From an uncultured virus (IMG/VR IMGVR_UViG_3300027793_000086) (lineage: Duplodnaviria > Heunggongvirae > Uroviricota > Caudoviricetes), in IMG/VR virus record IMGVR_UViG_3300027793_000086: a DNA stretch of 64,000 bases, one strand, 5' to 3'. Position 1 is the stretch's first letter; each line of letters opens with the position of its first letter. The position numbers and the translations under genes are program-made. The notes below the pieces were generated by a model that saw nothing but the letters and a program-made list of their open reading frames with translations, searched no databases and was not told the DNA's origin. This document shows positions 29,103 to 43,658 of the stretch, piece by piece.

Positions 29103-29779
29103 GTCTGCCCGGTGCTTGGTCGTACAGTGGCCTGAAGAAGTTCAAGACGTGCCCGAAGCAGTTTGCCGAGGTCAAGGTCTACAAGAACTTCACCGAGCCG
29201 CCCTTCACTGAGGCCACACTGTACGGGACCAACTTCCACGAGGCGGCAGAACTCTACGTGCGCGATGGCACCCCGCTGTCTGAAGCGTTCGCATACGTCA
29301 AGCCGCATCTGGATGCCCTGCGGTCCATACCGGGGACCAAGCACTGCGAGTACAAGATGGGTCTGACCGAGGCTATGGAGCCTTGCGCGTTCGACGCCCC
29401 TGGGGTATGGTGCCGGGGTGTGGCAGACCTGCTCATCGTTAACGAGGAGAAGGGTGTCGCCCGGGTGGTGGACTACAAGACCGGCAAGTCAGCCAAGTAC
29501 GCGGACACCGCGCAGTTGGAACTCATGGCGCTGATGGTCTTCAAGCACTTCCCCTCGGTGCACCGGGTCAAGGCAGGACTGCTCTTCGTGGTGGCGAACG
29601 ACTTCAAGCGGGCCGAGTACGACAAGACTCAGGAGAAGAACTACTGGCGCACATGGATGCAGGACATCCACCGCCTGGAGACCGCGTACAAGACCGGGGT
29701 GTGGAACCCAAACCCGTCAGGACTGTGCCGTAAGCACTGCGTAGTTACATCCTGCCCACACAACGGAGTCAACAAATGA
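29099..29779 (+). CDS. PD-(D/E)XK exonuclease (RecB/Cas4-like)
   Basis: WSYS..K.F..CP, GT.FH, RG.AD, VDYKTG, QL, C-terminal Cys cluster. Confidence 0.85.
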   Translation: MSLPGAWSYSGLKKFKTCPKQFAEVKVYKNFTEPPFTEATLYGTNFHEAAELYVRDGTPLSEAFAYVKPHLDALRSIPGTKHCEYKMGLTEAMEPCAFDAPGVWCRGVADLLIVNEEKGVARVVDYKTGKSAKYADTAQLELMALMVFKHFPSVHRVKAGLLFVVANDFKRAEYDKTQEKNYWRTWMQDIHRLETAYKTGVWNPNPSGLCRKHCVVTSCPHNGVNK

Positions 29780-29819
29780 GCAAATGGGTGCAGTTAGAAC
29801 TTGATTTTGGAGATCCATC

Positions 29820-30089
29820 ATGCCCTACAAAGATCCCAACGATAGAGACCATCGTAAAGAGTACGCTGACTTCCTTGCAAACGGAGGCAGAGCAAAGCAG
29901 TCTGAGCGACAGCGTGCACGCCGAGCCTGGGACAAAGAACACGGTAAGGATTCTCGAAAGGGAAAAGCCCTTGATCACGTGAAGCCGATCAAGGACGGGG
30001 GCAAGAGCACCCCGGGTAACGTGAAGCTCAAGAGCTTCAGCGCAAACAGCGCAAAGAATTTCAAAGGTCCCCGCTCAGGCGGGCGTTGA
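29820..30089 (+). CDS. Small HNH-like protein
   Basis: GKALDHVKPIKDGG...N......N; RBS GGAG. Confidence 0.7.
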   Translation: MPYKDPNDRDHRKEYADFLANGGRAKQSERQRARRAWDKEHGKDSRKGKALDHVKPIKDGGKSTPGNVKLKSFSANSAKNFKGPRSGGR

Positions 30090-30114
30090 CGTGTAGCCCC
30101 GCTGGGGCTATGCT
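30086..30114 (+). promoter_or_regulatory. sigma70 promoter with palindromic spacer
   Basis: TTGACG-17 nt-TATGCT; TAGCCCC-GCT-GGGGCTA overlaps the spacer and -10. Confidence 0.6.
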
Positions 30115-30197
30115 TGTTTCCCCCGGCTCGACCGGGACTCGTGGCTCGATGGGATCACCCTATCGAGCCGTTCTGCCATTCTCACTAGGAGATAAAA

Positions 30198-30734
30198 ATG
30201 ACACAGATGAAGAACGTCATGATAGACATTGAGACGCTGGGTACTCGTCCCGGAGATACGATCTTGTCGATCGGTGCTGTGAAATTCACAGCCGAAGAAG
30301 GTATCACTGAAGAGTTCTATGTGACCATCGACCCAGAGACCTGCAAGAATGCGGGTTTGCGTGCGCAGAAGAGCACGCTGGAGTGGTGGGAAAAGCAATC
30401 CCCCGAGGCCCGCGCCGCTGCGTTCAAAGGGGAACTGTCCCTCAACGTAGCACTCACCAAGCTGACGATGTGGATGCCCCCGCTGGACAGCGTGCTGGTG
30501 TGGGGTAACGGAGCGAACTTCGACAATACGCTGGTGGCTGCGGCGTACCGAGCCATGAAGATGGACGTGCCTTGGCACTACTGGAACGATAGGTGCTACC
30601 GCACCATCGCCAATATGTTCCTGAAGACCCGCGTGGAGCGAGTAGGCACCGGACACCATGCGCTTGACGACGCCAAGACACAGACCTTGCGCCTGCTGAA
30701 GATGCAAGAAGAAGCCAAGTTCACGCTGAAGTGA
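30198..30734 (+). CDS. DEDDh 3'-5' exonuclease (ExoVIII N-terminal/DUF5051-like)
   Basis: MIDIETLG, WGNGANFD, RCYRT, HHALDDA. Confidence 0.88.
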   Translation: MTQMKNVMIDIETLGTRPGDTILSIGAVKFTAEEGITEEFYVTIDPETCKNAGLRAQKSTLEWWEKQSPEARAAAFKGELSLNVALTKLTMWMPPLDSVLVWGNGANFDNTLVAAAYRAMKMDVPWHYWNDRCYRTIANMFLKTRVERVGTGHHALDDAKTQTLRLLKMQEEAKFTLK

Positions 30735-30742
30735 GGTAAGTC

Positions 30743-30940
30743 ATGGCTACGCAAAAAGAACTCAAAGATATCTGTCATCTTATGTTTGAAATCTTGAGTG
30801 ACAGTGACCTAACAAACTCAGAAGCACTGGAGATAGCACTCAACTTTTACGGGACAGTCTGCGTTCAAACTGATGTAACTGTTCATGATGCTGTAGGTGG
30901 GGTCATGACCTTCTACAAAAAACAACATGCAAATAGTTGA
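30743..30940 (+). CDS. Hypothetical protein
   Basis: 65 aa, RBS GAGG, AT-richer. Confidence 0.6.
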   Translation: MATQKELKDICHLMFEILSDSDLTNSEALEIALNFYGTVCVQTDVTVHDAVGGVMTFYKKQHANS

Positions 30941-32468
30941 AGACAAAGCTCTGCTGCTCAAGCTCAAGCACCCCGAGCGGGTGCTGAACACCATCCCGAA
31001 AAGCAAACGCTTGGACGATGGGCAGGTGCTGGTGCGGTGGGGGCTTGAGGAAGCACAGGTGCTGAAGAACCTCGGTGTTCGGTCGGTGCCTTCTCCCATC
31101 GAGCGCAGGTACAAGTGGCCTGGGCTGTTCAAGCCCTTCGAACACCAGAAGGACACCGCATCGTTCCTTACCCTGCACCGCAGGGCGTTCTGCTTCAACG
31201 ACCCGGGCACGGGCAAGACTGCATCCTTCGCCTGGGCTGCTGACTACCTGCTGGACAAAAAGTACATCAGCCGTGTGCTGGTGATCTGCCCGCTGTCAAT
31301 CATGAACTCGGCGTGGAGAGCAGACCTGTTCAAGACGCTGATGCACCGCAGGGTGGATGTGGCCCACGGCAGTCGGGACAAGCGGGTCAAGGTGATCAAG
31401 TCCGACGCTGAGTTTGTCATCATCAACTTCGATGGTGTGGAGACGGTGCTCGATGAACTCAGAGCAGGTGGGTTTGACCTTGTGATTATTGATGAAGCAA
31501 ATGCGGTGAAGACCGCTACGACGAAAAGATGGAAAGCAATCAACTCATTACTAACTCCCAACACATGGCTGTGGATGGCAACGGGGACACCAGCATCTCA
31601 GGCCCCGACAGACGCATACGGTTTGGCCCGTATGTTGAACCCTTCCTCCGTGCCTCCGTACTTCTATTCCTTCAGGGATACAGTCATGTACAAGGCAACG
31701 CAATTCAAATGGACCGCAAAGAAAAACGCAGCAGAGATCGTCAACAAGGTGCTGCAACCCGCCATACGTTACACCAAGGATGAGTGCCTGGACCTGCCTG
31801 AGCTTCTGTACACGACACGTGAGGTAGACCTGACCCCGCAGCAGTCGAAGTATTACAAGATGCTCAAGGATCAGTTCATCATGGCAGCGGCAGGGGAGAC
31901 AGTCACCTCAGTCAACGCAGCGACCAACCTGAATAAACTTCTTCAAGTGGCAAGCGGTGCGGTTTATACGGACGATGGCAACACCGTCGAGTTCGACATC
32001 ACGAACCGGTACAACGTGCTGGTAGAAGCTATCGATGAGAGCACCCACAAGGTGCTGGTCTTCGTCCCGTTCCGCCATGCCATCGAGGTTCTGCGCGACA
32101 GGCTGCGCAAGGATGGGTACGCAGTGGAGGTGATTCACGGGGGCGTCTCAGTGACCCGCCGCACAGAGATCTTCCAAGCGTTTCAGACCGAGCCCGAGCC
32201 GCGCATCCTCCTCATACAGCCTGCGGCTGCATCGCATGGCGTCACCCTGCACGCTGCCAACACAGTGGTGTGGTGGGGTCCTGTCACTTCGAACGAGATC
32301 TGGCACCAAGCCAATGCACGGGTGCACCGTGCAGGCCAGAAGAACCCCTGCCTCGTGGTCAGGCTTTGCGGCTGCAACGTCGAGCGCAAGCTCTACGCGG
32401 CTCTGGACCTGAAGACCGAGGACATGGACTCCCTTCTCAATTTGTACAAGGAGGAGCTTGACGTTTGA
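30927..32468 (+). CDS. SNF2-family helicase
   Basis: PGTGKT, IIDEA, TGTP, HGVTL, QANARVHRAGQ. Confidence 0.9.
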   Translation: MQIVEDKALLLKLKHPERVLNTIPKSKRLDDGQVLVRWGLEEAQVLKNLGVRSVPSPIERRYKWPGLFKPFEHQKDTASFLTLHRRAFCFNDPGTGKTASFAWAADYLLDKKYISRVLVICPLSIMNSAWRADLFKTLMHRRVDVAHGSRDKRVKVIKSDAEFVIINFDGVETVLDELRAGGFDLVIIDEANAVKTATTKRWKAINSLLTPNTWLWMATGTPASQAPTDAYGLARMLNPSSVPPYFYSFRDTVMYKATQFKWTAKKNAAEIVNKVLQPAIRYTKDECLDLPELLYTTREVDLTPQQSKYYKMLKDQFIMAAAGETVTSVNAATNLNKLLQVASGAVYTDDGNTVEFDITNRYNVLVEAIDESTHKVLVFVPFRHAIEVLRDRLRKDGYAVEVIHGGVSVTRRTEIFQAFQTEPEPRILLIQPAAASHGVTLHAANTVVWWGPVTSNEIWHQANARVHRAGQKNPCLVVRLCGCNVERKLYAALDLKTEDMDSLLNLYKEELDV

Positions 32469-32486
32469 AAAGTTGCGAAGTAAACT
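32458..32486 (+). promoter_or_regulatory. sigma70 promoter
   Basis: TTGACG-17 nt-TAAACT. Confidence 0.6.
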
Positions 32487-32512
32487 CTGGTTTCCCTCAC
32501 TAGGAGCACAAC

Positions 32513-32917
32513 ATGGACGAGCAAGAAGAACTGCCGCCAACCAAAACTCTGGTCAAGGCGTACATCAAGATGCGCGATGCCCGAGCGGCGTTGAGCGCAG
32601 AGTTTGAGGCGAAGGATAAGGACCTCAAAGAACAAATGAGGGTGGTTGAAAACTACCTGCAAGAAGCCTGCAAACGTGCAGGCGGCAACGTCAGCATTCC
32701 CGGTGTTGGCGTAGTCATTCGCGGCGTGGATACACGCTACTGGACTTCTGACTGGGAGTCTATGCACAACTTCATCAAGGAGAACAACGCACTAGAACTG
32801 CTTGAACGACGCATAGCACAACGCGCTATGGGGGAATTCTTGAAAACCAATCCTGACAAAATGCCCAAGGGCATGAACGTCGAATCGAAGTACACAGTGA
32901 CCGTAAGGAGGTCTTAA
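32513..32917 (+). CDS. Conserved replication-module protein
   Basis: LVKAYIKMRD...YWTSDWESM..FI...LLERRI. Confidence 0.75.
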   Translation: MDEQEELPPTKTLVKAYIKMRDARAALSAEFEAKDKDLKEQMRVVENYLQEACKRAGGNVSIPGVGVVIRGVDTRYWTSDWESMHNFIKENNALELLERRIAQRAMGEFLKTNPDKMPKGMNVESKYTVTVRRS

Positions 32918-32920
32918 ATC

Positions 32921-33850
32921 ATGTCTGAACTCACACTTTTCCAATCTGGCAGCGCTCTTCCTGCGCATCTTCGTCGCGGTGAACTCAGCGGCCTGACCAA
33001 GTCCCTGATGGGTGGCGGCAGCAGCAAGCGCATCAGCGTTGAAGGCAGTGTCTTCCGTATGCTGGTCGGTGGTAAAGAGGTTGCGGTCAACGAAGACCGT
33101 GCCATGCAGATGATCATCGTCCGTGCTGCTGAAGCAAACGCCCGCACCTACTACGGTGGACAGTACGAGAAGGGCGTCAAGGCCCGCCCCAAGTGCTGGT
33201 CCGACGACAGCGTCAAGCCGCACGACAAGGTGCAGAACCCGCAGCACAAGTCCTGCACGGGCTGCCCGCAAGACATCAAGGGCTCGGGCCAAGGTGACTC
33301 CAAGGCGTGCCGTTACAGCCGTCGTCTGGCAGTGCTGCTGTCATCTGATATCCACGGTGACATCTACGCCATGAACATCAACGCATCCAGCCTGTTCGCG
33401 CAGGGTGAGGGGCGCAAGATGGGCCTGCAACAGTACGCACGGTTCCTTGGTGGTCACGGTATCGAGGTCAACGCAGTGGTGACTGAGATGCGCTTCGACA
33501 CGAGCGGCCCGATGAAGCTGGTGTTCAGCGCTGTGCGTCCTCTGGAAGAGGATGAGTGGAAGCTGGTGCAGTCGCGCATGGACGAGCAGGCTGCGATCGA
33601 CGCAGTGACCATGACCATCGCTGACATCGACGGTGTGGAAGAGGCTGCCCCTGCGGAGTCTCCTGTGTTCATCCAGCCACGCGCTGCGGCTCCAGCCCCT
33701 GCCGCTGAGTTCAAGGTGGACAAGCCCAAGAAGACCAACCCGGCTAAGGTTGAGGAAGTCGAAGAGCCCGTGGTCCGGGAGGCGAAGGCACCGGCACCGC
33801 CGAATGTCAAGTCCATCCTGTCCGACTGGGGTGATGACGCGGACGACTGA
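32921..33850 (+). CDS. Putative ssDNA-binding/annealing protein
   Basis: RTYY, CWS.D, CxxC..GSG..KAC Zn motif; acidic C-terminal tail WGDDADD; biased codons. Confidence 0.65.
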   Translation: MSELTLFQSGSALPAHLRRGELSGLTKSLMGGGSSKRISVEGSVFRMLVGGKEVAVNEDRAMQMIIVRAAEANARTYYGGQYEKGVKARPKCWSDDSVKPHDKVQNPQHKSCTGCPQDIKGSGQGDSKACRYSRRLAVLLSSDIHGDIYAMNINASSLFAQGEGRKMGLQQYARFLGGHGIEVNAVVTEMRFDTSGPMKLVFSAVRPLEEDEWKLVQSRMDEQAAIDAVTMTIADIDGVEEAAPAESPVFIQPRAAAPAPAAEFKVDKPKKTNPAKVEEVEEPVVREAKAPAPPNVKSILSDWGDDADD

Positions 33851-33857
33851 GTAGGGA

Positions 33858-33880
33858 CGGGGGCTACGGCCCCCGCTTTG
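33858..33880 (+). terminator. Probable terminator hairpin
   Basis: CGGGGGC-TACG-GCCCCCG-CTTT. Confidence 0.55.
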
Positions 33881-33884
33881 CCAT

Positions 33885-34118
33885 ATGACCTACTCCGCCA
33901 AGATCATTCGGCTGAACGCGGATGCGGACCCGACGCTGCTGGGTGTCCAACTCGGACGCCTGTGCATCTACCGTCAGCACCCTGTCTCACAAGTCTGCCA
34001 AGACCTCGACGTTTCCAAGGCTGCCGTCTATCGGTGGTTCTCGGGTAAACACGAGGTCGGAAAGCACTTGCGCGACAAGGTGCTGGCGTACTATCGTCGC
34101 CTCCTCCCTCCGGCCTGA
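33885..34118 (+). CDS. HTH DNA-binding protein
   Basis: VSQVCQDLDVSKAAVYRWFSG (Cro/CI-like HTH). Confidence 0.75.
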   Translation: MTYSAKIIRLNADADPTLLGVQLGRLCIYRQHPVSQVCQDLDVSKAAVYRWFSGKHEVGKHLRDKVLAYYRRLLPPA

Positions 34119-34174
34119 TCAGCCGTCCCTTCACCGCACCACGGTCCTGCACCTGTGGTCACCCCCTCGTCACC

Positions 34175-36982
34175 ATGTCTCATCTTGGATTCTTAGAAGG
34201 CATTCTTCCAGAAGGAACACGGTACTCTCTCAGGCACATCAACAAAGCATCTAATTCAGCGTTCAATAAGTTCTACGACTCCGTCGCCAGCATGGCGGAG
34301 GCCGTGGCAAATCCGAAGGAAGGCTTTGACATTTACTACGTCACAGCAGGATTCGGAGCAGGACAGAGCGCAGTATCAGAGAACGCTGTAGCAAAGAGAG
34401 AACTGTACGTTGACATCGATTGTGGCCCGACGAAGTCATACGCCGACAAAACTGCGGGCATCGCTGCACTGAAAGATTTCTGTGTAGCCACAGAACTGCC
34501 AAGACCTACGATTGTGGATTCAGGCAATGGCCTGCATGCACATTGGATTTTCAAAGAAGCCGTGCCTGTGCACGAGTGGATCGGAGCAGCTAACGCGCTA
34601 AAAGCGCTGTGCAAAAACAAAGGGTTCGAAGTTGACAACGCATGTACCGCAGACATCGTGCGGGTGCTGCGCATACCGGGCACCGTTAATAGCAAGGGGG
34701 GCAACACAGTCGCTCTGTTAACCCCACTCAGGTACTACGATTTTGAGAAGCTGAAAGGCATCCTTGGCGGTGGCCCACCCGTCATGTCGTTTGAGAAAGC
34801 CAGGGAGCTTTCGAAGGGCGCATCGTCTAGCGTGACGAAGCATCTGGCAGCAAGTGATCCCAACAGGGTGAGCTTGTTTGAAACAATCTGGATGCGTTCT
34901 GTTGGAGGTACGGGCTGTGCTCAAATCAAAAATGCGATTGAGAATTCGGAGACACTTCCCGAGCCAACGTGGCGGGCAGTTCTATCTATCGCTTACCACT
35001 CAGAGGACAAAGACTGGGCAATACATAAGGTATCGGAAAATCATCCGAATTACTCTGCGCAAGAGACTGAACAAAAAGCTGCTGCGACAAAAGGTCCGTA
35101 CACTTGCGAGACGTTCCAAGGTCTAGATACAGGGCACCTGTGCAAGGACTGCCCGCAAGCTAGCAAGATCAAGTCCCCGATCCAGTTGGGTGTGCAGATC
35201 AAGACAGCACCGGAAGGCCCAGCTAAGGTTGAGATTGCTGGCAGGAAGTTTGAGATTCCTGCCTTCGTGTGGCCCTACAAGCGTGGTGCAAACGGTGGGG
35301 TGTACTTAGAAACCACCTCTGACAACGGCACCAAAGATGAATTGATCTACCCGTATGACCTGTATGTGTACCGACGCATGCGGGACTCAGAGATGGGTGA
35401 TGTGATCTGGATGCGGCACCATCTGCCAAACGATGGCGTGCGTGAGTTCATGGTCGCGCAGAGGGAAGTGGGCTCCATCGACAAGTTCCGGGACCGTCTC
35501 AACGAGCAGGGGGTCGCCGTATTCGGCCAAGCGCAACTGGTCAAGTTGCAGGGCTACGTAGCGAAGTCTATTCAGGATCTACAACATCGGGATAAGGCAG
35601 AAGAAATGTACGGCAGGTTCGGTTGGACGAAGAACAACACGTTCATCGTAGGTGATCGGGAGTACACCAAGAAGGGTGTGATCTATGCACCTGTGACTCG
35701 GAATCTGGAGAAGTACATACATTGGTTCTCTCCCAAGGGTTCCCTGGAAGAGTGGAAGCGCATCGCCGCTGCCTACGAAGACCCGAGGTTCGACCTGCAC
35801 GCATTCGGTGTGCTGGCAGGGTTTGGCAGTGTCCTGATGAATCTGTCGCCTGAGAACGGCGCGGTGGTCAACTACTACTCCAAGCGCAGCGGCACGGGCA
35901 AGACCACCATCCTGCGGGTGGTCAACTCGATCTTCGGAGACCCCAAGGCGCTGATGAAGGATGCGCAGGACACGCAGTTGACCAAGGTGCACCGCATGGG
36001 TGTGCTGAACGGCATCGCCATGTGCCTTGACGAGATGACCAACACCAGCCCGCAGGAGATGTCTGGGCTGCTCTACGGTAGCACGCAGGGGCGGGCACGG
36101 GACCGTATGGAGGCAGGGCGCAACATGGAGCGCATCAACGACCTGATCTGGAAGCTGATTACCATCTGGTCGAGCAACACCAACATCGAAGACCGGCTGA
36201 GCATGATCAAGGTGGACCCGCAGGGGGAGATGGCTCGCGTCATCGAGTTCTACCTACAGACACCCGTACCCTCTGATGTGCTGGGGGCGCAGAAGTTGTT
36301 CAACGGTTTGAGTGATCACTATGGTCACGCAGGTGATGTGTTCTTGAAGTATGTGGTGCCCCACCTCGACGCAGTGCAGGGCATCTGGGAAGAGACGCGA
36401 GATGTTATCTACACGATGGGTAACTGGACGCAGACTGAACGGTATCGTCTTAATGCTGTGATCTGCGCTATTGCAGCGGGGGTAGTCACAAACACGCTGG
36501 GGCTGACCAACTACAACGTCAAGCGGATCATGCGTACTGTGCTTGACCACATCAAGAACACGGTAGAGCAGGCCAAGCAGCAGTCCACCAAGGCTACGGA
36601 AACCTTTGCCTCGTTCATCAACAAGAACGTCGGTAACATGCTGAGCATCGACTCCAGGCAGCGGGCGAATGGCTTGCAGAACGAAGCCTATGTGAAGCCC
36701 AAGGGGTCACTCATGATCCGCTACGAGCCTGATACGAAGGACCTGTACGTCGTGCAGAAGGACTTCAACAGGTGGTGTGCGGAGATCTACATCAACACAC
36801 GGGAACTGCCCGACCTGTTCTTTGCAGAGACAGGGCATAGATTGGAAGTTATCAAGAAGCGTATGGGTGCTGGGTGGGACGCTGACTTTGGCGCAGTCAA
36901 TGTCTACTGCATAAAGAATGCAGGGGCTGTGCTAGGATTTGCAGACCATGAGATGGTTACCGACAAGACCACTGAAGATTAA
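34175..36982 (+). CDS. Primase-helicase (RepB/AEP-like primase + DUF927 + ATPase)
   Basis: VDID, SGNGLHAHW, RVLRIPGT; Walker A SGTGKT, Walker B CLDE. Confidence 0.85.
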   Translation: MSHLGFLEGILPEGTRYSLRHINKASNSAFNKFYDSVASMAEAVANPKEGFDIYYVTAGFGAGQSAVSENAVAKRELYVDIDCGPTKSYADKTAGIAALKDFCVATELPRPTIVDSGNGLHAHWIFKEAVPVHEWIGAANALKALCKNKGFEVDNACTADIVRVLRIPGTVNSKGGNTVALLTPLRYYDFEKLKGILGGGPPVMSFEKARELSKGASSSVTKHLAASDPNRVSLFETIWMRSVGGTGCAQIKNAIENSETLPEPTWRAVLSIAYHSEDKDWAIHKVSENHPNYSAQETEQKAAATKGPYTCETFQGLDTGHLCKDCPQASKIKSPIQLGVQIKTAPEGPAKVEIAGRKFEIPAFVWPYKRGANGGVYLETTSDNGTKDELIYPYDLYVYRRMRDSEMGDVIWMRHHLPNDGVREFMVAQREVGSIDKFRDRLNEQGVAVFGQAQLVKLQGYVAKSIQDLQHRDKAEEMYGRFGWTKNNTFIVGDREYTKKGVIYAPVTRNLEKYIHWFSPKGSLEEWKRIAAAYEDPRFDLHAFGVLAGFGSVLMNLSPENGAVVNYYSKRSGTGKTTILRVVNSIFGDPKALMKDAQDTQLTKVHRMGVLNGIAMCLDEMTNTSPQEMSGLLYGSTQGRARDRMEAGRNMERINDLIWKLITIWSSNTNIEDRLSMIKVDPQGEMARVIEFYLQTPVPSDVLGAQKLFNGLSDHYGHAGDVFLKYVVPHLDAVQGIWEETRDVIYTMGNWTQTERYRLNAVICAIAAGVVTNTLGLTNYNVKRIMRTVLDHIKNTVEQAKQQSTKATETFASFINKNVGNMLSIDSRQRANGLQNEAYVKPKGSLMIRYEPDTKDLYVVQKDFNRWCAEIYINTRELPDLFFAETGHRLEVIKKRMGAGWDADFGAVNVYCIKNAGAVLGFADHEMVTDKTTED

Positions 36983-37166
36983 AGGGGCGGAGTTCAACGT
37001 GCCCTTTGGGCTCAACGTGAATCAGAGCTTCTTCATCCCGTCTCTGAAGCACAAGGAGACCTTCCACAAGGTGGCAGATTACTACTCACCCCACCTGTAC
37101 AAACTGGTCTGGTCTGAGCGGATTGAGTCGGGGGTGCTTGGCATCCGCGTCTGGCGCGTTGCATAA
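36948..37166 (+). CDS. Small GIRVWR-family protein
   Basis: QSFFIP...GVLGIRVWR; similar to 22486-22728. Confidence 0.65.
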   Translation: MRWLPTRPLKIKGAEFNVPFGLNVNQSFFIPSLKHKETFHKVADYYSPHLYKLVWSERIESGVLGIRVWRVA

Positions 37167-37173
37167 TGCCCCT

Positions 37174-37243
37174 GCCGGTCAACCGGCGTCTCCCCTAGTG
37201 AGTGTTGCCCCCGGGTGTGGCGTAAGCCCCCGGGGGATTTTTT
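37174..37243 (+). ncRNA. Candidate small regulatory RNA ending in the convergent terminator
   Basis: Upstream TTGGCA-18 nt-CATAAT; 5' hairpin, unpaired CTCCCCTAGTGAG, terminator hairpin with T6. Confidence 0.4.
37208..37243 (+). terminator. Terminator between the convergent arms
   Basis: CCCCCGGG...CCCGGGGG-ATTTTTT. Confidence 0.75.
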
Positions 37244-37244
37244 C

Positions 37245-40200
37245 TCACCGACCCATCTGGATGTCCCGCGCCATCTTGCGCAGCATCTGCGCCTGCTGTG
37301 CCAGCTTGTTCTGCTCCACACGCAGTTCATCGATGCGCTTGCGCCGCTCCTCAGGGCTCAGGGAGGTGTCGCGGTCGATCATCATGGCGGCTTGGTTCAG
37401 GGCGCGGATGCCGCTCATGACCCCCTGCACCGGGCCACGGATCGAGTACAGGCCGATGTTGTCTTGGATGAACTGATCCACGTCCTCAGGCTTGCGCTCC
37501 ATCAGGCGGTTCACCGTGCCGTTGACCTGCTCCACGCGCTTCTCCAAGTCGTAGATGAAGTCAAGTTGGCGGGTGCCGATGGGGTCCTTGATGACCGCGC
37601 TCAGGCCCGTAAGTTGTGCACCTAGCTGCTGGTTCAGTGGCCGGTCGGTACGCCCGGGGTTGATCATCATGTCAGCCATCGACAGGCCCAGCCCTGCAGC
37701 CGTGCCGAAGATACCGCGCACAGCGTTCTCCAGCTTGATCGGAGAGACAGCGAAGGCTTCGATACCTGTGGCGTTGGCAGCGTCCTCCAAACTCTTGGCG
37801 AGGGCCTTCATCGCATCTGATGTGCCAGTACCGTACCGCTCAAACGGACGCAGTGCCTGCTGAGCCTGAGACTCCAGTGGTCTGCCAAGGAACCACGAGT
37901 AGTTCGTCATGTTCTCAACGAACGGGCGCAACACCTGCGGTGTGATGTTGGGCGATGAGAAAACATCGACCCCCCGCTTGGCTAAGTTACCCACCACGTC
38001 GAGTGCAGTCTGCTCCTCCTCGGTGCCATACATCTTGTAGTAGCGGACGATGCGCTCAGGGATGGCCTTGAAGAAGAACGCGAGTTCAGCAGGAATCGGG
38101 ATGGCAGGTACGAAGCCCAGTTCCTTCCCGTAGGGCAGTATCCAGTTGGTATCCCGCACGTGGTCAGGTAGCTGCTGGTACTCCTCATCATCCTGCATCA
38201 ACAGCGCATACAACAAGCCCATCGAGGTCATCACCCCCATGCGCTTGTAGAACATGGACCGTGCGGTGCCTGTGCTCTGCCCAACAACACCCCCAGCCGC
38301 TGCCGTTGCCAGCTTGTCCATGCCTCGCGCATAGGCATTGAAGAAGGGGATGACGCTGATCAGCAGATTCATTACCTGGGATGAACCACGGCGGCTGAAG
38401 TTGATGATCTCCCGTGCAGCAGACTCAGCCTGAGCCTTGTCACCGTTGGTCTCCTTCATCACCTGATCGTAGACAGCTTGACGCACTGCGAGGTCCGATG
38501 CCTTGGCACCGGCTTCCATCACGCGCATGATCTTGGAGCCAAGACCTTCTTCCTTCGCCCCAGCTTCCTCAAGGATGTTCTTGAGGTTGCCCTGCTGGCT
38601 GAAGTCGAACGTGCCGACGATACCGAGGGCCTCCAAGTTCTTGATGTCCTTGGGCTTCTTCTTGAAGATCTCGTTCACCCAGTTCTTGGGGAAGTTCAGC
38701 ATCACGCTCTTGACAAGCGCTGCGTTGTTCTTCACCCCTGCGTAGGTGTAGGCACGGACGATGTCGTCGAAGACCTGCTTGATCGCAAACGGTGGCATGG
38801 ATGTCACACCAGCACGCAGGATCTGAGAACCTTTCTGTAGTAGCTTGAACGAGTCTGGGATGACCGGGTCTTGGATACTGAACGCAATGAAGTGCGCTGG
38901 GTCCGGTACGTAGTACTCGACGGGCTTGCCGTTGTCGTAGACGGTGACCATGTCCCCCGGTGAGTCCTTGGCAGGCTTGGTCGGGCGCTTGAATGCTGCA
39001 CCCATCAGGGCCATATCCTTGAGTGCACTCAGGGCGGCGTGGTTCTTCATCGCCTCCTTTGTTGCCCAGTCAACCAGCCCGGAGAAGTTCTCGACCGGTG
39101 AAGTCGTTTTGCGCCCACTGCCTTCCAGCTTGCGGATGTTACGTAGGGCTGCGACACCACGGTTGGCACCCTTGGTGGACTGATACGCCTTCTCGTAGTC
39201 ACCGAGTCGGTTGAAGGGGATGTAGCCCGTGGCGTCCTTGTAGTCCTGGGCTCGATCCTTGGAGATGCGCCCTGTATCAACCAGCGTGTCCAGCAGGTTG
39301 AAGCGGATGGTGTCGAGGTCGGCGGAGATCTGCTTGATGAAGTCGTCTTTCTGGAAGGCTGCTTCCAGTTCATCGATCTTGGCGTCGGGCAGGAGTAGTT
39401 CGATCCGATCAGTCTTAGGCAGGGTCTTGTTGGTCTCACGCAGACCGTGCTCCCGGTGCCCGTAGAGAACCGTGTCGAGCTTGGTGCGGAAGGCTTCGTA
39501 GGTCTCACCCCGCTGTTTGGCAGCCTCAGCGATGCGGTTCAGCACGCCTGTGTAGCTGACGGGTCGGCCCTCGGCATCCTGCAGATCCTTGGCAACGATG
39601 AGCCCGCTGTCGAAGCCCAGCCCACCTTGTTCCTGCACAGCCTTGCTGACGCGCAATGAGTCGAGCGCCCGGGACAAGAGCACCATCGGGTTCAACCGCC
39701 CCTTGGCAGTACGGGTAGCGCCACCGTAGGCGTTGACGAAGAAGTCTTCCAGCGGGGCCAGCGAGTCGGTGAACTTCATCCGCAGCTTGAGTGCGGGGTT
39801 GCCCTTGAGGTCCTGCGCGATGCGTTGGGTCAGCGTCTGACGCTCTTTCTCACCGATGACATCTACATCCTTGACGGCTGCTTCGGTCTGCGGGGTGAGG
39901 CGCGGGCTGGCCTGCGGGGTGAGATTGTCTGCAGCCTGCTTCAATTCAGCGAGTTCAGCGGGGGTAAATCCAGCACCACTGTAGCTGCGAATGTCTACGT
40001 TAGTGACTATTACACCTTGCTTGGCAGCAACGTAGATTGTCTTGTTTGCAGTTGACGTACCTTCGTACAGGGCAACAGGGCCTTTGTTCCATACAGGCTT
40101 CAGGCCACGAGATTCTTTCAGCACCCAACTTGGGATACCAGTTGTGTTAGCTTGCTTACCGAAAGACAACCCCCGCCTATTTGCTTCAGCGATATACGGA

Positions 40201-43200
40201 ACCAGAGACTCGTCAAGAATCTCTTCAGACACAGCCATCAACCGTGCAAGCGCACTGGTTTCCTTACCCTTCAGCCCAAGCACCTGGGAGACGATGTTGA
40301 ACATCCGACTGAGGAACGTGCCCCCAGACGGGTCAGTAATCGACGCTAGCCAGTTTTGGGTTTCTCCGTTGGTAAGGCCGTATGCTAGGAGTTCCTTGGG
40401 GTTCTCCAAAGCGTTGAGGATCACGCCCTTTTCAGTAGCAGTGAGAGTTTTAGCTTTATACCTTTGGTTATAGATACTGACGAGTTCTTGCTGGAGAGCA
40501 CGGAGCTTGATCGCTGCTGTACTCTGCGGAGCATATGTGATTTGGGCTGACGTTACGGCGTGAATTAGCTCGTGTACCAACGTCTCTTGATTGATGGTGT
40601 TGCTTGGATTGCCTGTAAAGCCATTGAGTGTGACCTTGACAGCCATAGCGTCACCGAGCCCAGCAGGAGTCGTTGTTGCAACGCCAAGAGCACCTGTCAG
40701 AACCCTACCCTGCGGGGTAAGTTCGAAGTCGAACTGCACGCCGTTGTTCGCTAGTTCCTCAGCGCGGCGCTTGACTTTGACCAGAATCTGTCGATCGAGG
40801 TCATCTCGGGCGTTCCTGATCGCGTAGTCGATCGACTCGGTGAAAGACTTCCCACGCAGGGCGGCGTCCATCTGCTTGGAGTTTTCCAAGTCAACGGGGC
40901 CGGTGCGGGTCTGTTGGAAGTCAGTGTCTTCGTCGCTCAGTCGTCGTGTAGTGCTATCCCGCGCTGCCTCTGCTTCCGCTTCTGCCGCTGCCTCTGCTTG
41001 TGCTGCTTCCTCTTCGGTCAGCACTTGATCCGGTGCAACTTCCTCAGGGATGATTCCTTCTTCCTCTGTCTGCGCTTCTTCCTCTGCAACCAGCTTGCCA
41101 TAGGCACGGTTGATAGCTGCGTCAGTACCCACTCTGTCAGCTTTGCGGCGGGCTGCAACCTCTGCGTTCAACTGCTGCATCACAGCAGTGTTGTCCTTGG
41201 CGTCGTACCGAGAAGCGCGTGAGTAGATGTCAGCCAGTTGGCGGGTGTCGAGCTTGCTGAAGTCAAAAGAACCCGTCTTGGTCAGTGCGGGGCGGAAGAA
41301 AGCCTGCACCTTTGGTGTAGCCTGCTTAAGCGCTTTCTCAGCTTCTTTGTATTCCTTGAAGTTAGGAGCGTCTTTCTTAGGAGCTTTACCGTCAACTTGT
41401 AGGGCTTTTACACGAGCAACAAGCGCGTCGTATTCCGCATCTGTTTGAACAGGTTTTGCAGGGGCTTCATACAGAATCCCAGCCTTGGGGTTCTCCACCG
41501 AGATGCCGGATAGGCTTGCCTCAGAGACGTTCTTGGCAATACCGATAGCCCCAGTCTGCGCAGCCTGGAACCGGCTAATCACGTCAGCCGTGATGCCCAA
41601 GGTCTCAGCGATGCGGCGCACGTTGGCACCGGAGCTTTTTGCAAGTCCTACAGACTGTGCAGCTTCGTCGGCAGAGTAGGTAGTGGGCAGGTAGTCACCG
41701 TCCTCATCCACGCCAATGTAGGTCAGCACCGCCTTGAGCATCTTGGGGTCACGCCCCTTGAGCGCTTGCCGTACAGCCGGTATGTCGAGGATGGGCTTGC
41801 CGTCCCTCACTTCAAAGACGCCGGTTGCACCAGCCTTCTCCAGCTTCTGCTTGAGCGTGCCAGTTTCAGCAGGGCTGAGCGCATCCGACTGCGCTTGCCC
41901 CATCACTGTCGTGGGGGCTTCTTCAGCTTCACCCAGCAGTTCAGCACGGTAGTCGGCGGCCTGCTCTTCAGTGATCCGACCAGACTCAATCAGCGAAGTG
42001 AGTTCACGCTCAATCTGAGCGGGCGTGGGAGGCGTTACTGCAGGCGGCTCTGTTCCTTCTCTTCCAGCAGCCCCTGTAACATCCGCGACAGGAGAAACCA
42101 CTCCATCTGGTTCAGGTCCAACTCCTTCGGCGGTGCTGACGGCAGCGGGTCCGCCAGCCACTGGAACGCCTGCTCCACCTGCTTCTGGCTGAGGTTCTGC
42201 AACACTTGGGGTCTCCGGTTGTACTGGGGGTGGAGCAAACTTGGCCTTGAACTCCGTCAGCTTGGTACGGGACTCTTCAGTGCCGTTACCCCGCACAAGG
42301 TAGTTCTCGATGTCAGCAAGGACAGCGTCTCGTTGCGCAGGGTCCTCAAGATCTTTGCCCAACATGCGCCGATAGATCGGCTGCTTTTTACTGACGCCGA
42401 GGGCTTCAATGTCAGCGGGCTGCAAGCCAGTCGCAGGGGGTTCACCGGGCTTTCTAACCTTGGGCTCTTCGATAGCTGCTGCGGGCTGCTCTTCAGCCGC
42501 TGCCGTGACTTCTTCACGGGGGGTGATCTGTGCTGCTGCCGCTTCTTCGGCAGTCATGAACCCCTTGGCTGCTTCGCTAGTGGAGCGCTGCTCCTCAATG
42601 TACGCTACGTTGAGTGCCTTGCGTTTTTCAGCCGCTGCCTTCAACGCCTCATCACGCTCCTTGGATTTCGGAAGCGTCTTCAGTTGTTCGCTGTACAGAA
42701 CAAGTTCAGCGTAGGTGTCAGGCGGAGGTAGGATGCCCGCCGCAGGAGGTGCAGGGGGTTGTGCAGCAGCTTTAGCCGCAGCTTGTTCAGCAGCAAGGCG
42801 CTCGGCACGCTCGATGGGCTTTTCCCCGGGTAGGGTTCCCGGGGCAGGCTGCGCAGCACGTGCGCGACGACCCAAGGCCAAGTCCATCAAGCCCTGCACG
42901 ATGGCACCAGTTGCACCACCGTAGGCCGCTGCCTCACCCAGCCCCTCGATGAGTTCCTGCTCAGGCTTGTAGACGCCCTTGGCGATCAGGTTCTGGGCGA
43001 AGTTCGACGCTGCTTCCTGAGCAGCTTCCTCACCACCTGCAAGCGCAGCACGCTTGACCAACTGCACGCCCTGAGCCGTGGCAGCATCAGGGATACGAGA
43101 CAGGATGCGGAAGGGTGCGAAGACTTCCATCGCCCCGGGGATGATCCCGAGCGCCGTCGCGGTGCTGCGCTGCTCCGCAGTAGCACCTTCCTTCTCGGCA

Positions 43201-43658
43201 CGTCCACGTGCTTCACCAGCACCGGCTCCAACACCCAAACCAACCGCACCGATACGACCCGCAAGGCCAAGAGGACCCGCAGCCAAGAACGGCACCGTTG
43301 AGCCGAGGGCTTCGCCCAGCTTACGCCCGACTGACTCCTCGTACCCTGCAGAGGCAGCGAACGGTGCTTTGGCTGCGCCAGCGATGCTGGCAATCTTCTC
43401 CCGCGCCGTCTTCTCGTAGTCCTCAGGCAAGAGCGCAGAGGCACCCACAGCCGCTGATTCAACCAGCCCTACAGCACCGGGCACCAAGCCCTTGAACGCT
43501 TCACCAACCTGCCCGAGGACGGTTGTTTCAGGCGGCGGCTTCGCCGCATCAGGGTACTGAGCAAGCAGGGCCTGGACGATCAGCGCTTGAGGTGCCCCCG
43601 CAGGTCCCTCGATCTGATATGTCTTACCGTTCGGGGCTTGGACACGGTACAGCGCCAT
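37245..43658 (-). CDS. Large internal virion/ejection protein (polyvalent: HExxH peptidase + LPD38-like C-terminus)
   Basis: 2137 aa; Gly/Ala membrane-like N-terminus, LVHELIHA, INFSRRG..PFFNA..Y..LP...RD.NW..IP.P.E. Confidence 0.75.
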   Translation of the reverse strand: MALYRVQAPNGKTYQIEGPAGAPQALIVQALLAQYPDAAKPPPETTVLGQVGEAFKGLVPGAVGLVESAAVGASALLPEDYEKTAREKIASIAGAAKAPFAASAGYEESVGRKLGEALGSTVPFLAAGPLGLAGRIGAVGLGVGAGAGEARGRAEKEGATAEQRSTATALGIIPGAMEVFAPFRILSRIPDAATAQGVQLVKRAALAGGEEAAQEAASNFAQNLIAKGVYKPEQELIEGLGEAAAYGGATGAIVQGLMDLALGRRARAAQPAPGTLPGEKPIERAERLAAEQAAAKAAAQPPAPPAAGILPPPDTYAELVLYSEQLKTLPKSKERDEALKAAAEKRKALNVAYIEEQRSTSEAAKGFMTAEEAAAAQITPREEVTAAAEEQPAAAIEEPKVRKPGEPPATGLQPADIEALGVSKKQPIYRRMLGKDLEDPAQRDAVLADIENYLVRGNGTEESRTKLTEFKAKFAPPPVQPETPSVAEPQPEAGGAGVPVAGGPAAVSTAEGVGPEPDGVVSPVADVTGAAGREGTEPPAVTPPTPAQIERELTSLIESGRITEEQAADYRAELLGEAEEAPTTVMGQAQSDALSPAETGTLKQKLEKAGATGVFEVRDGKPILDIPAVRQALKGRDPKMLKAVLTYIGVDEDGDYLPTTYSADEAAQSVGLAKSSGANVRRIAETLGITADVISRFQAAQTGAIGIAKNVSEASLSGISVENPKAGILYEAPAKPVQTDAEYDALVARVKALQVDGKAPKKDAPNFKEYKEAEKALKQATPKVQAFFRPALTKTGSFDFSKLDTRQLADIYSRASRYDAKDNTAVMQQLNAEVAARRKADRVGTDAAINRAYGKLVAEEEAQTEEEGIIPEEVAPDQVLTEEEAAQAEAAAEAEAEAARDSTTRRLSDEDTDFQQTRTGPVDLENSKQMDAALRGKSFTESIDYAIRNARDDLDRQILVKVKRRAEELANNGVQFDFELTPQGRVLTGALGVATTTPAGLGDAMAVKVTLNGFTGNPSNTINQETLVHELIHAVTSAQITYAPQSTAAIKLRALQQELVSIYNQRYKAKTLTATEKGVILNALENPKELLAYGLTNGETQNWLASITDPSGGTFLSRMFNIVSQVLGLKGKETSALARLMAVSEEILDESLVPYIAEANRRGLSFGKQANTTGIPSWVLKESRGLKPVWNKGPVALYEGTSTANKTIYVAAKQGVIVTNVDIRSYSGAGFTPAELAELKQAADNLTPQASPRLTPQTEAAVKDVDVIGEKERQTLTQRIAQDLKGNPALKLRMKFTDSLAPLEDFFVNAYGGATRTAKGRLNPMVLLSRALDSLRVSKAVQEQGGLGFDSGLIVAKDLQDAEGRPVSYTGVLNRIAEAAKQRGETYEAFRTKLDTVLYGHREHGLRETNKTLPKTDRIELLLPDAKIDELEAAFQKDDFIKQISADLDTIRFNLLDTLVDTGRISKDRAQDYKDATGYIPFNRLGDYEKAYQSTKGANRGVAALRNIRKLEGSGRKTTSPVENFSGLVDWATKEAMKNHAALSALKDMALMGAAFKRPTKPAKDSPGDMVTVYDNGKPVEYYVPDPAHFIAFSIQDPVIPDSFKLLQKGSQILRAGVTSMPPFAIKQVFDDIVRAYTYAGVKNNAALVKSVMLNFPKNWVNEIFKKKPKDIKNLEALGIVGTFDFSQQGNLKNILEEAGAKEEGLGSKIMRVMEAGAKASDLAVRQAVYDQVMKETNGDKAQAESAAREIINFSRRGSSQVMNLLISVIPFFNAYARGMDKLATAAAGGVVGQSTGTARSMFYKRMGVMTSMGLLYALLMQDDEEYQQLPDHVRDTNWILPYGKELGFVPAIPIPAELAFFFKAIPERIVRYYKMYGTEEEQTALDVVGNLAKRGVDVFSSPNITPQVLRPFVENMTNYSWFLGRPLESQAQQALRPFERYGTGTSDAMKALAKSLEDAANATGIEAFAVSPIKLENAVRGIFGTAAGLGLSMADMMINPGRTDRPLNQQLGAQLTGLSAVIKDPIGTRQLDFIYDLEKRVEQVNGTVNRLMERKPEDVDQFIQDNIGLYSIRGPVQGVMSGIRALNQAAMMIDRDTSLSPEERRKRIDELRVEQNKLAQQAQMLRKMARDIQMGR

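Follow-up and report, generated by a model that had tools for sequence, protein, structure and literature searches.

Does the short stretch between the plus-strand replication module and the minus-strand structural module of this uncultured phage encode a regulatory RNA, and which genes would such an RNA control? The window, i.e. the whole stretch of DNA that was analysed, comprises 64,000 nucleotides, and the element in question ends 1 nt from the stop codon of a convergent gene for a 2137-aa protein. The original prediction was a phage sRNA directed against a ribosome-binding motif shared by two replication-module genes. According to the present analysis, 37174-37243 (+) is probably a new trans-acting phage sRNA, which would block ribosome binding on the early and replication mRNAs of its own phage. 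This reading is based on features of the sequence, namely the anatomy of the element, its conservation, the constraint on its promoter, the compensation in its hairpins and the way in which seed and targets have changed together. From these, we infer that the RNA is produced with the ends given below, that it pairs with its targets in vivo and that repression is the effect.

Structure of the predicted RNA

The locus contains the following features:

36948-37166, plus strand: 72-aa ORF, the last gene of the plus-strand replication module; conserved, family unassigned
37138-37167, plus strand: sigma-70-like promoter, TTGGCA (37138-37143), 18 nt, CATAAT (37162-37167)
37174-37243, plus strand: predicted sRNA of about 70 nt, its start placed by the -10 hexamer and its end by the U-tract
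37174-37187, plus strand: 5'-terminal hairpin GCCGG-UCAA-CCGGC (predicted fold)
37188-37207, plus strand: open seed region of 20 nt with the core UCUCC (37189-37193) and the extension CCUAGUGAG (37194-37202)
37208-37243, plus strand: rho-independent terminator, stem 37208-37236 and U-tract 37238-37243

The region 37174-37243 folds with -33.4 kcal/mol (z = -2.79), and 1/200 shuffled sequences was as stable. The predicted fold agrees with the sRNA architecture originally proposed, i.e. a 5' hairpin, an open stretch and a terminator. Most variants have an open seed in their minimum-energy fold; the window's own seed forms a weak 4-bp helix. The anti-Shine-Dalgarno core UCUCC is present in all lineages (CCUCC in L046) and the extension is variable. 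Rfam 15 gave no match in 29000-39000 at E-values up to 1 and none at gathering score in the entire window.

The terminator adjoins the stop codon of the convergent 2137-aa gene at 37245. Its U-tract is found on the plus strand only, a T-run is present in 10/10 variants, and RNAalifold predicted 11 pairs, four of which show compensating double changes. Since MAFFT misaligned the 5' hairpin, it could not be scored on the alignment and was compared by stem sequence and position instead of an alignment-based pair count or covariance model. The hairpin is retained through three unrelated stem sequences at a constant distance from the -10 hexamer: besides the stem of the window, the GCUGG/CCAGC type occurs in lineages B-E and the GUCAA/UUGAC type in lineage F, all at the same position.

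Predicted promoter within the 72-aa ORF

A promoter TTGGCA-18 nt-CATAAT had been predicted for the RNA. It is present at the predicted position with 10/12 matching positions and is the best of four promoter-like sites in 29500-38500, a number which is no excess over shuffled sequences (3.8 +/- 1.9). While the location was correct, its context needs to be amended, as the promoter sits within the end of a conserved gene. It is contained in the last 11 codons of the 72-aa ORF, the stop codon TAA of which lies inside the -10 hexamer. The encoded protein is kept in 9/9 lineage representatives and has no match in Pfam or PHROG.

Across the promoter hexamers of related contigs, CTTGGCAT and the -10 positions A2 and T6 are invariant in 10/10 variants. 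In lineage F, the -10 hexamer reads TATAGT and the ORF stops with TAG; the key -10 positions are kept despite the change from TAA. Within the -35 hexamer, the Leu and Gly codons do not vary at their silent third positions, and elsewhere in the ORF none of 10 conserved four- or sixfold-degenerate codons has an invariant third position (Fisher's exact test computed by hand, 1/66). About 6 nt separate the -10 hexamer from the first hairpin base in every lineage. These observations support the view that the predicted promoter is under constraint at the nucleotide level.

Seed and target sites

The predicted targets and their surroundings are:

30181-30192, plus strand: target site 1, CTCACTAGGAGA, overlapping the Shine-Dalgarno sequence of the exonuclease gene
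30198-30734, plus strand: exonuclease gene, Rv2179c-like DEDD 3'-5' exonuclease (Pfam PF16473, E = 2.3e-48)
32458-32486, plus strand: predicted promoter of the 134-aa gene, TTGACG-17-TAAACT (9/12 match), within the end of the helicase gene
32496-32506, plus strand: target site 2, CTCACTAGGAG, overlapping the Shine-Dalgarno sequence of the 134-aa gene
32513-32917, plus strand: 134-aa gene, function unassigned (PHROG 13900 'minor head protein', E = 8.6e-19; no match of the protein in Pfam)

The word CTCACTAGG occurs three times in the window, at 30181 (+), 32496 (+) and 37194 (-), compared to a chance expectation of 0.27, and 0/100 shuffled sequences reached three copies. Both plus-strand copies are part of CTCACTAGGAG and are located 6 nt before the ATG codons at 30198 and 32513. 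The complementarity of nine nucleotides to the Shine-Dalgarno regions of the exonuclease gene and the gene at 32513, on which the original prediction was built, is exact, and its proposed continuation into GGAG was reproduced by duplexfold: at both ribosome-binding sites, nine contiguous pairs are followed by GGAG across a 2-nt bulge. The energies are -17.6 kcal/mol for the exonuclease site and -16.1 kcal/mol for the site of the 134-aa gene. Ranked by duplex energy with the window's own seed, the start region of the exonuclease gene is 3rd and that of the 134-aa gene 6th among 92. The target sites, that in the exonuclease leader among them, lie in weakly structured leader stretches.

Both targets had also been taken as first genes behind promoters of their own, which is plausible for the 134-aa gene only. 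The motif TTGAC(G/A)-17-TA(A/G)ACT is kept upstream of this gene in 9/10 compared sequences, being present in lineages A, B, D, E and F and absent from lineage C (L020); the leader produced from it would be about 20 nt long and start at the target site. The site at 30086-30114, considered as the promoter of the exonuclease gene, overlaps a terminator-like hairpin.

Conservation and joint change in related phages

The element was found in the same place in 11/11 IMG/VR contigs extending past the primase gene, in 5/5 metagenome loci and in 7/7 loci of lineage F, where primase identity is down to 55-56%. No related contig which reaches the region is without it, and each of them retains the 5' hairpin, the open seed and the terminator along with the promoter, which supports the interpretation as an sRNA. 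A DNA search of 36000-38500 against cultured phages gave no match, the nearest virus record (G001) is without this region, and a scan of genome contigs returned a single locus, where 30 residues of an unrelated MAG matched. In the Pseudomonas phage Rollin, a distant cultured relative with 28.6% primase identity, the convergent genes overlap and leave no spacer for the element.

A search for compensating changes of seed and target in related phages had been proposed as a check, and its result was positive. In lineages A, B and C, seeds of the CUAG type go with ACTAGGAG-type sites. In lineages D and E, the seed UUUCUCCUGAUGAUU faces the exonuclease site CATCAGGAGAAA and the site TCATCAGGAGA of the 134-aa gene, forming 10-12 contiguous pairs. 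The duplex energies of all genomes with their own seeds sum to -199.0 kcal/mol versus a mean of -160.8 kcal/mol for permutations, and 4/720 assignments of seeds to genomes paired as well as the true one (1/24 in a version using four lineages). In L005 and L015, a C-to-U change in the seed stands opposite an unchanged G in the target, giving a G-U pair which RNA tolerates. Lineage B contains six forward copies of the motif and lineage D at least four, all of which belong to early genes on the plus strand. Every sense copy is located on the coding strand, 5-8 nt upstream of a start codon.

The seed and the two target sites vary together across the lineages, with weak or absent agreement in lineage F and at the exonuclease sites of L017 and lineage C. 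In lineage F, the site of the 134-aa gene matches through the Shine-Dalgarno core only; L017 combines a seed identical to that of the window with a weakened exonuclease site (CACTAGGTGA, -14.2 kcal/mol); and the exonuclease site of lineage C pairs at only -10.9 kcal/mol. In the sequences compared, the joint change is essentially one large event, from the CUAG type to the UGAUGA type, plus smaller ones, which makes about three documented events.

Significance within single genomes

From the window alone, the match between seed and targets is only moderately significant. When free duplex energy was calculated for all 42,648 30-nt windows (mean -9.8, sd 3.3), neither target was among the best 30. 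Under a loose null model, which allows all candidate starts of 494 ORFs, 549/2000 shuffled seeds gave at least two 9-nt matches; this model was not significant in other lineages either (B, 287/2000; F, 1456/2000). Under a strict null model with one start region per gene (92 genes), at least two 9-nt matches were obtained with 29/5000 shuffled seeds. This is the value for lineage A (k = 9); the observed count was reached by 8/5000 shuffles in lineage B (k = 8) and by 6/5000 in lineage D (k = 9). Lineage F showed no enrichment with one start region per gene (1275/5000).

These nulls overstate significance, because shuffling destroys the anti-Shine-Dalgarno core of the seed. A fairer control is the cross-seed matrix, in which clean specificity is seen for lineage D alone: its seed finds four start regions with at least 8 matching nucleotides in its own genome versus 1, 0 and 0 in those of A, B and F. 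The seed of lineage F has more matching sites in genome B than in genome F. The exonuclease start region ranked 3rd of 92, tied 2nd of 94, 2nd of 111 and 1st of 86 with the own seed in the four genomes. Genes were called with a GC3-weighted caller, which misplaced some starts (helicase, primase) and missed the 134-aa gene of lineage D.

Metatranscriptome contigs

The phage is present in four metatranscriptome runs as Logan contigs with a depth of about 2-17. Three of the RNA contigs cover 36900-37284, 36882-37343 and 37118-37268, i.e. ORF, element and the end of the convergent gene; as these contigs carry neither strand nor ends and may stem from DNA carry-over, they are neutral with respect to a 70-nt RNA.

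Alternative explanations

The shared motif might be read by a protein, either as a DNA operator or promoter element or as an RNA operator for a repressor or nuclease, and 37174-37243 would then be a mere 3' UTR. Concerted change of the motif copies is equally expected in this case, because a change in the specificity of the protein would alter all three copies, the inverted one included. Moreover, two genes in lineage B share bases beyond the seed match (GGGCATCACTAGGAG), and the 2137-aa protein weakly matches a PHROG of the N4 virion RNA polymerase (E = 1.3e-8, about 130 residues). The minus-strand copy in the window reads CTCACTAGGGGAGA, which may resemble the core sequence that phage promoters of the T7 type share; the idea of such a promoter on the minus strand was dropped, since no single-subunit RNA polymerase is found among the 32 ORFs scanned. 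We consider a protein site unlikely. The inverted copy of the window has a 2-nt insertion compared to the targets, which is a tolerable bulge for RNA but would break a rigid protein site, and L005 alters a core base of the inverted copy only, as the G-U pair allows. In every lineage, the complementarity reaches the Shine-Dalgarno core and, at different targets, differing flanks (e.g., GAAA at the exonuclease site of D and CGCA across a 1-nt bulge in F). The inverted copy is always found in the open stretch between the promoter-proximal hairpin and the terminator, and the position of the sense copies before start codons on the coding strand likewise argues against a protein site.

An ordinary junction of convergent operons, consisting of a 3' UTR, a stabilising hairpin and a terminator, with a pyrimidine-rich spacer which matches by composition or chance, would fit the location of the element exactly between convergent modules, where terminators are expected, as well as the weak statistics within the window and the metatranscriptome contigs bridging the junction. 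It is nevertheless quite unlikely: the UCUCC core and the promoter hexamers persist down to 55% primase identity, whereas neighbouring silent sites are saturated, and chance explains neither that the spacer tracks the same two ribosome-binding sites (4/720) nor that the exonuclease site is in the top three of four genomes. The spacer-free junction of phage Rollin indicates that a junction as such does not require the element. The RNA could also exist solely as the 3' UTR of a long primase-operon mRNA, acting in cis or after processing, without an own promoter; this is a variant of the trans-acting sRNA which differs in biogenesis. In its favour, no terminator separates the element from the operon's last ORF, which immediately precedes it, RNA contigs connect ORF and element, and the conserved protein end LGIRVW could explain part of the -35 conservation. 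What makes this variant improbable is the promoter itself, whose silent third positions in the -35 hexamer are invariant while comparable ones elsewhere vary, whose key -10 positions survive the change of the stop codon, and whose distance to the hairpin start is fixed. Finally, the minus-strand copy may be viewed as the ribosome-binding site of a small minus-strand gene, since GGGGAGAC is followed after 7 nt by a TTG (37182) opening a 49-aa ORF. This is hardly credible: the TTG is part of the hairpin loop and is lost in L005 and L026, the loops of which read TTGA or TTAA on the plus strand, and the ORF is antisense to a conserved plus-strand protein. It was dropped, as the start codon is not conserved in close relatives. 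Also discarded was the idea that the sites pair more extensively with the host's 16S rRNA tail; this tail hardly varies and so cannot account for lineage-specific words or for their complement in the RNA.

Proposed mechanism

As a trans-acting sRNA, the element would function as follows. Host RNA polymerase would start at the sigma-70-type promoter in the final ORF of the replication module and stop at the intrinsic terminator; alternatively, read-through from the primase operon may deliver the same RNA as a 3' UTR. The 5' hairpin and the terminator hairpin would frame the open 20-nt seed, in which the UCUCC core is followed by the lineage-specific extension. The seed is predicted to pair with about 11-13 nt, comprising the Shine-Dalgarno sequence and the 7 nt preceding it, on the mRNAs of the 3'-5' exonuclease gene (30198) and the 134-aa gene (32513). 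Pairing would bar the 30S subunit and lower translation of the targets, and it may expose the mRNAs to decay. In sister lineages, the RNA would match four to six early or replication genes, including an AAA ATPase of the clamp- or helicase-loader type; therefore, these genes may form a small translational regulon which is marked by a motif in the ribosome-binding site.

Comparison with known systems

Among trans-acting sRNAs encoded by phages, few are understood; the majority belong to temperate model phages, and work on them has centred on host targets. Our literature search found no description of the present RNA family. The c4 antisense RNA of phages P1 and P7 has about 77 nt and acts in trans on an mRNA of its own phage around the ribosome-binding site, and its seed and target differ jointly between related phages, which sets specificity. 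The predicted RNA resembles c4 in pairing with ribosome-binding sites of its own phage and in seed and target differing together. While c4 arises by processing from the same transcript, regulates a single antirepressor operon and serves immunity in temperate phages, the RNA proposed here has a separate predicted promoter and dispersed replication and early targets, and the scanned ORFs showed no lysogeny genes.

VpdS of phage VP882 and PreS of phage lambda are trans-acting phage sRNAs which alter mRNA expression in lytic growth, VpdS acting on phage and host mRNAs. Both are Hfq-dependent, belong to cultured temperate phages and have key studied targets in the host (dnaN for PreS), in contrast to the present targets, which are predicted from sequence and are genes of the phage itself. 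The bacterial 3'-end sRNAs MicL and DapZ have their promoter within the coding sequence that precedes them and share the terminator of the mRNA. These chromosomal stress-response regulators use an open seed to block the Shine-Dalgarno sequence of mRNAs made elsewhere. A promoter in the end of a coding sequence, a terminator in common with the mRNA and an open seed against Shine-Dalgarno sites are common to them and the predicted RNA, but the latter is phage-borne, and its seed is largely anti-Shine-Dalgarno plus a specificity extension.

If true, this would be a new RNA family of uncultured freshwater phages which regulates the phage's own replication genes. The lineages, in which a seed and several ribosome-binding sites were rewritten together, represent a natural experiment, and A-type and D-type seeds with their matching leaders would be a ready orthogonal pair.

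The start-associated sequence (SAS) of Cluster K mycobacteriophages (PMC3203893) is an asymmetric AGGAG-containing motif 3-7 bp before the starts of non-structural genes only, which extends beyond the pairing reach of the 16S rRNA; a number of these phages contain one further copy, which is oppositely oriented and not associated with a gene start. Its role has been open since 2011 and was still termed unknown in 2024-2025. Likewise, the window has two forward copies 6 nt before an ATG and one inverted copy without a gene start. The numbers differ, with 11-19 SAS copies of 13 bp compared to two copies of 11 nt in the window (six in lineage B), as do motif sequence, phage group and host, and for the inverted SAS copy an RNA has been neither proposed nor shown. 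By inspection, CTCACTAGGAG and the variants of the relatives do not fit the 13-bp SAS consensus GGGATAGGAGCCC with up to two deviations. The comparison shows that the system of the window would work like SAS but is not thereby a member of it.

A more general view is possible, although we regard it as doubtful: in an 'anti-start-sequence' system, early and replication genes would carry an extended ribosome-binding-site word and one complementary sRNA would control them all. Lineages would re-code seed and word together, as in the CUAG and UGAUGA types, and the pair would serve as a specificity label among relatives infecting the same cell; the RNA could silence the replication genes of a superinfecting relative with the same word, and divergence would mean escape. 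If this held, it would explain the Cluster K SAS with an inverted copy in the hairpin loop of a non-coding gap, and it offers a concrete hypothesis for the role of start-associated sequences. The SAS consensus was searched in a single genome, that of phage Anaya, which contains 16 forward copies and one inverted copy; the latter, at about 59,870-59,882 of the record, occupies the 10-nt apical loop of a hairpin predicted to be strong, within a gap of 385 bp.

Genomic setting and architecture of the element

The window is a phage genome, in which the element occupies the 78 nt separating the last plus-strand ORF from the convergent gene of a 2137-aa protein. The plus-strand block holds genes for a family A DNA polymerase, a PD-(D/E)XK nuclease, a small HNH protein and an exonuclease, the latter followed downstream by a helicase, a 134-aa gene, a 309-aa gene and a 935-aa primase-helicase. 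The setting and the element, the latter delineated by promoter scan and by RNA folding of 37174-37243, comprise the following features:

about 12 kb to 37.2 kb (+): early and replication block
30198 (+): Rv2179c-like DEDD 3'-5' exonuclease gene
36948-37166 (+): last plus-strand ORF, 72 aa, conserved, no known family
37138-37167 (+): predicted promoter TTGGCA-18-CATAAT, 10 of 12 positions matched
37174-37187 (+): 5' hairpin
37188-37207 (+): essentially open 20-nt stretch
37208-37236 (+): terminator stem, then six U
begins at 37245 (-): structural block, first protein 2137 aa

Thus, the sRNA architecture described in the original prediction was recovered in all its parts. The promoter ranks best among four promoter-like sites in 29500-38500, a number not in excess of shuffled sequence (3.8 +/- 1.9). 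It sits in the final 11 codons of the 72-aa ORF, which encodes a real protein, and the TAA stop codon belongs to the -10 hexamer. The -10 hexamer is followed after about 6 nt, in every lineage, by the first hairpin base, where transcription would start. The fold of 37174-37243 has -33.4 kcal/mol (z = -2.79; 1 of 200 shuffles equally stable). The U-tract is confined to the plus strand. Since the terminator has no U-tract on the minus strand, late minus-strand transcripts may, speculatively, continue past it and run antisense to the candidate RNA. Searches of the window sequence for Rfam families and tRNAs found none. A minus-strand ORF at the element was rejected, as it is not conserved in relatives.

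The 2137-aa protein (37245-43658, -) contains an LPD38 domain (PF18857, E = 3.5e-35) and matches weakly, over about 130 residues, the PHROG of N4-type virion RNA polymerases (E = 1.3e-8). It probably belongs to the large virion or ejection proteins.

Conservation among related phages

The element is real and conserved. No DNA match was found in cultured phages; related uncultured contigs were found by protein-guided scans and grouped into lineages by element sequence. The element is at the same position in all 11 IMG/VR contigs, 5/5 metagenome loci and 7/7 lineage F loci reaching past the primase gene, and none of the contigs found to cover the region is without it. Some metagenome and IMG/VR records are of equal length and probably represent one contig; the alignment comprised ten distinct variants.

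In the terminator, RNAalifold predicted 11 pairs, four with compensating double changes. The 5' hairpin occurs in every lineage with stems unrelated in sequence (GCCGG/CCGGC in A, GCUGG/CCAGC-type in B-E, GUCAA/UUGAC-type in F), which MAFFT could not align; hence, no alignment-based pair count is given for it. Between the hairpins, the ten variants retain a UCUCC core (CCUCC in L046, a lineage F contig), while its 3' extension is variable.

In the promoter, CTTGGCAT is identical in 10/10 variants, and the -10 hexamer is CATAAT in lineages A-E and TATAGT in lineage F, which uses TAG as the stop codon. The 72-aa ORF ends in a conserved LGIRVW, so protein constraint could account for part of this conservation. 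The silent sites argue otherwise. They were compared in 18 degenerate codon columns with an identical residue across all nine representatives: the third positions of the Leu (CTT) and Gly (GGC) codons within the -35 hexamer are invariant, compared to 0/10 of the other 4- or 6-fold-degenerate columns (Fisher test, 1/66, computed by hand).

Joint change of seed and target sites

The original prediction placed the complement of a seed 9-mer at the Shine-Dalgarno sequences of two genes, and CTCACTAGG was indeed found there, at 30181 (+) and 32496 (+). The only other copy in the window is at 37194 (-); 0.27 copies are expected and 0/100 shuffles reach three. Both plus-strand copies read CTCACTAGGAG, 6 nt upstream of the ATGs at 30198 (exonuclease gene) and 32513 (134-aa gene).

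Seed parts and target sites by lineage (contigs; primase identity to the window)
A (window, L005, L026; 93-100%): seed ...UCUCCCCUAGUGAG...; exonuclease CTCACTAGGAG; 134-aa gene CTCACTAGGAG
B (L008; 68-69%): seed UCUCCCUCCUAGUC; exonuclease ACTAGGAGG; 134-aa gene ACTAGGAG
C (L009; 68-69%): exonuclease CTAGGAG; 134-aa gene ACTAGGAG
D/E (L010/L011; 68-69% each): seed UUUCUCCUGAUGAUU; exonuclease CATCAGGAGAAA / CATCAGGAGA; 134-aa gene TCATCAGGAGA
F (L044, L046, L048; 55-56%): seed UGCG-U-CUCCUAG; exonuclease CTAGGAG-CGCA (1-nt bulge); 134-aa gene, little match beyond AGGAG

Compensatory seed and target changes, proposed as a check of the original prediction, were thus looked for and found. Lineages D/E have 10-12 contiguous seed-target pairs. 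In L046, seed and exonuclease site are both changed with pairing retained at -18.2 kcal/mol, and in the contigs L005/L015 a C-to-U change in the seed faces an unchanged target G, giving a wobble pair. Over six lineages, the own-seed duplex energies sum to -199.0 kcal/mol versus a permutation mean of -160.8. Only 4/720 seed permutations are as good as the true assignment (1/24 for four lineages); according to the duplex matrix, these four are presumably swaps of about equally pairing seeds (B/C, F1/F2). There are two exceptions. The lineage C exonuclease site pairs with a mere -10.9 kcal/mol. In L017, an IMG/VR contig with 96% primase identity, the seed is the same as in the window and the exonuclease site is CACTAGGTGA, with a weakened Shine-Dalgarno sequence and -14.2 kcal/mol; in this close relative, the target apparently drifts.

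Predicted target sets and statistical strength within genomes

Target sets of lineages B and D were taken from the plus-strand early regions of two complete relatives (G002 and G003; L056-L063). The complete lineage B genome has (A)CTAGGAG(G) at the ribosome-binding site of six plus-strand early genes. In lineage D, at least four early genes, the two core targets included, carry their own lineage motif at this site; among them are an AAA ATPase gene of clamp/helicase-loader type (TCATCAGGAGAA, 12 nt, -24.3 kcal/mol) and a 144-aa gene. Window orthologues of the extra B/D target genes are without the motif and the lineage A set consists of two genes.

When duplex free energy was scanned over all 42,648 stretches of 30 nt, the core targets fell outside the best 30. 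With a loose null (494 unfiltered ORFs, all candidate starts), shuffled seeds were as good in 549/2000 cases for A, 287/2000 for B and 1456/2000 for F; lineage D alone stands out (0/2000). With one start region per gene, the observed count was reached by 29/5000 shuffles for A (k = 9), 8/5000 for B (k = 8), 6/5000 for D (k = 9) and 1275/5000 for F. These nulls are generous, because shuffling destroys the anti-Shine-Dalgarno core, and the cross-seed matrix is the fairer control. In this matrix, sites matching the D seed over at least 8 nt number four in its own genome and 1, 0 and 0 in A, B and F. A CUAG core is common to the other three seeds, which cross-match. By own-seed duplex energy, the exonuclease start region ranks 3rd of 92 in A, tied 2nd of 94 in B, 2nd of 111 in D and 1st of 86 in F, and that of the 134-aa gene 6th of 92 in A.

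The best seed duplex in the window is formed at the start region (24097-24125, +) of an 89-aa ORF, where GGGGGAGGAG precedes the ATG at 24123 (-18.5 kcal/mol, 1st of 92 start regions); pairing there is limited to the UCUCCCC run. By energy alone, this site may be a third target, or it may simply be a strong Shine-Dalgarno sequence.

Interpretation and alternative explanations

The element probably represents a new family of phage sRNAs that act on early and replication mRNAs of the same phage. The trans-acting sRNA would cover the Shine-Dalgarno sequence and the preceding 7 nt, whereupon initiation would be blocked; we infer repression as the sign of the effect, and likewise its timing. This mechanism is of a known kind; the family and its regulon logic would be new. 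Biogenesis from the operon 3' end, instead of or besides the own promoter, is possible. The architecture matches that of bacterial 3'-end sRNAs whose promoters lie within coding sequences.

Concerted change of the copies would equally be expected of a motif read by a protein. Such a motif does not account, however, for the 2-nt bulge, for the wobble change, for complementarity that extends in a target-specific way, or for the inverted copy always being located in the open part of an sRNA-shaped unit. Nor would a plain terminator at the convergent junction explain the silent-site constraint or the tracking of two particular genes. In freshwater metatranscriptomes, the phage was present in four runs, solely as low-depth contigs spanning the whole junction, which are uninformative on the RNA.

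Comparison with known systems

The closest mechanistic precedent is the c4 RNA of P1/P7, whose seed and ribosome-binding-site target differ jointly between P1 and P7. VpdS and PreS are recent examples of trans-acting phage sRNAs. The start-associated sequences (SAS) of Cluster K mycobacteriophages resemble the target side of the system. Their role is still termed unknown. Several Cluster K phages have one inverted SAS copy away from gene starts (PMC3203893).

In one such genome, Mycobacterium phage Anaya (JF704106), 16 forward copies and 1 inverted copy were found. The latter (34871-34883 of locus L069, about 59870-59882 of the Anaya record) is situated in a non-coding gap of 385 bp that separates gp96 from gp97. 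On the plus strand it makes up the 10-nt apical loop (CCUCCUAUCC) of a predicted hairpin that is long and strong. The surrounding 171 nt fold with -81.8 kcal/mol (z = -4.29; 0/200 shuffles as stable). A simple scan found no σ70-like promoter. The parallel between this predicted hairpin and the element is a lead, not a result.

Additional observations

In 4/4 metatranscriptome runs, the contig that spans both the 134-aa and the 309-aa gene (32603-34012) is the deepest of a 10-kb stretch (10.2, 16.6, 6.8 and 3.8 versus about 1-7 elsewhere). Genes cannot be ranked by contig depth, so this is no more than a hint of high expression.

Three hairpins are predicted in the exonuclease gene leader (30086-30170). 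The one that comes first (30091-30113) lies within the spacer of a promoter-like site, TTGACG-17-TATGCT; a T-rich run follows it, and lineage B shows compensating changes in it. This hairpin could act as terminator of the small HNH gene, as a promoter or as both. An apparent 418-bp intergenic gap holds an 89-aa ORF (29820-30089, +) with a weak HNH match (E = 0.004, short of the Pfam cut-off). Larger HNH or homing endonuclease genes are located at 20572-21771 (+) and 1642-3156 (-).
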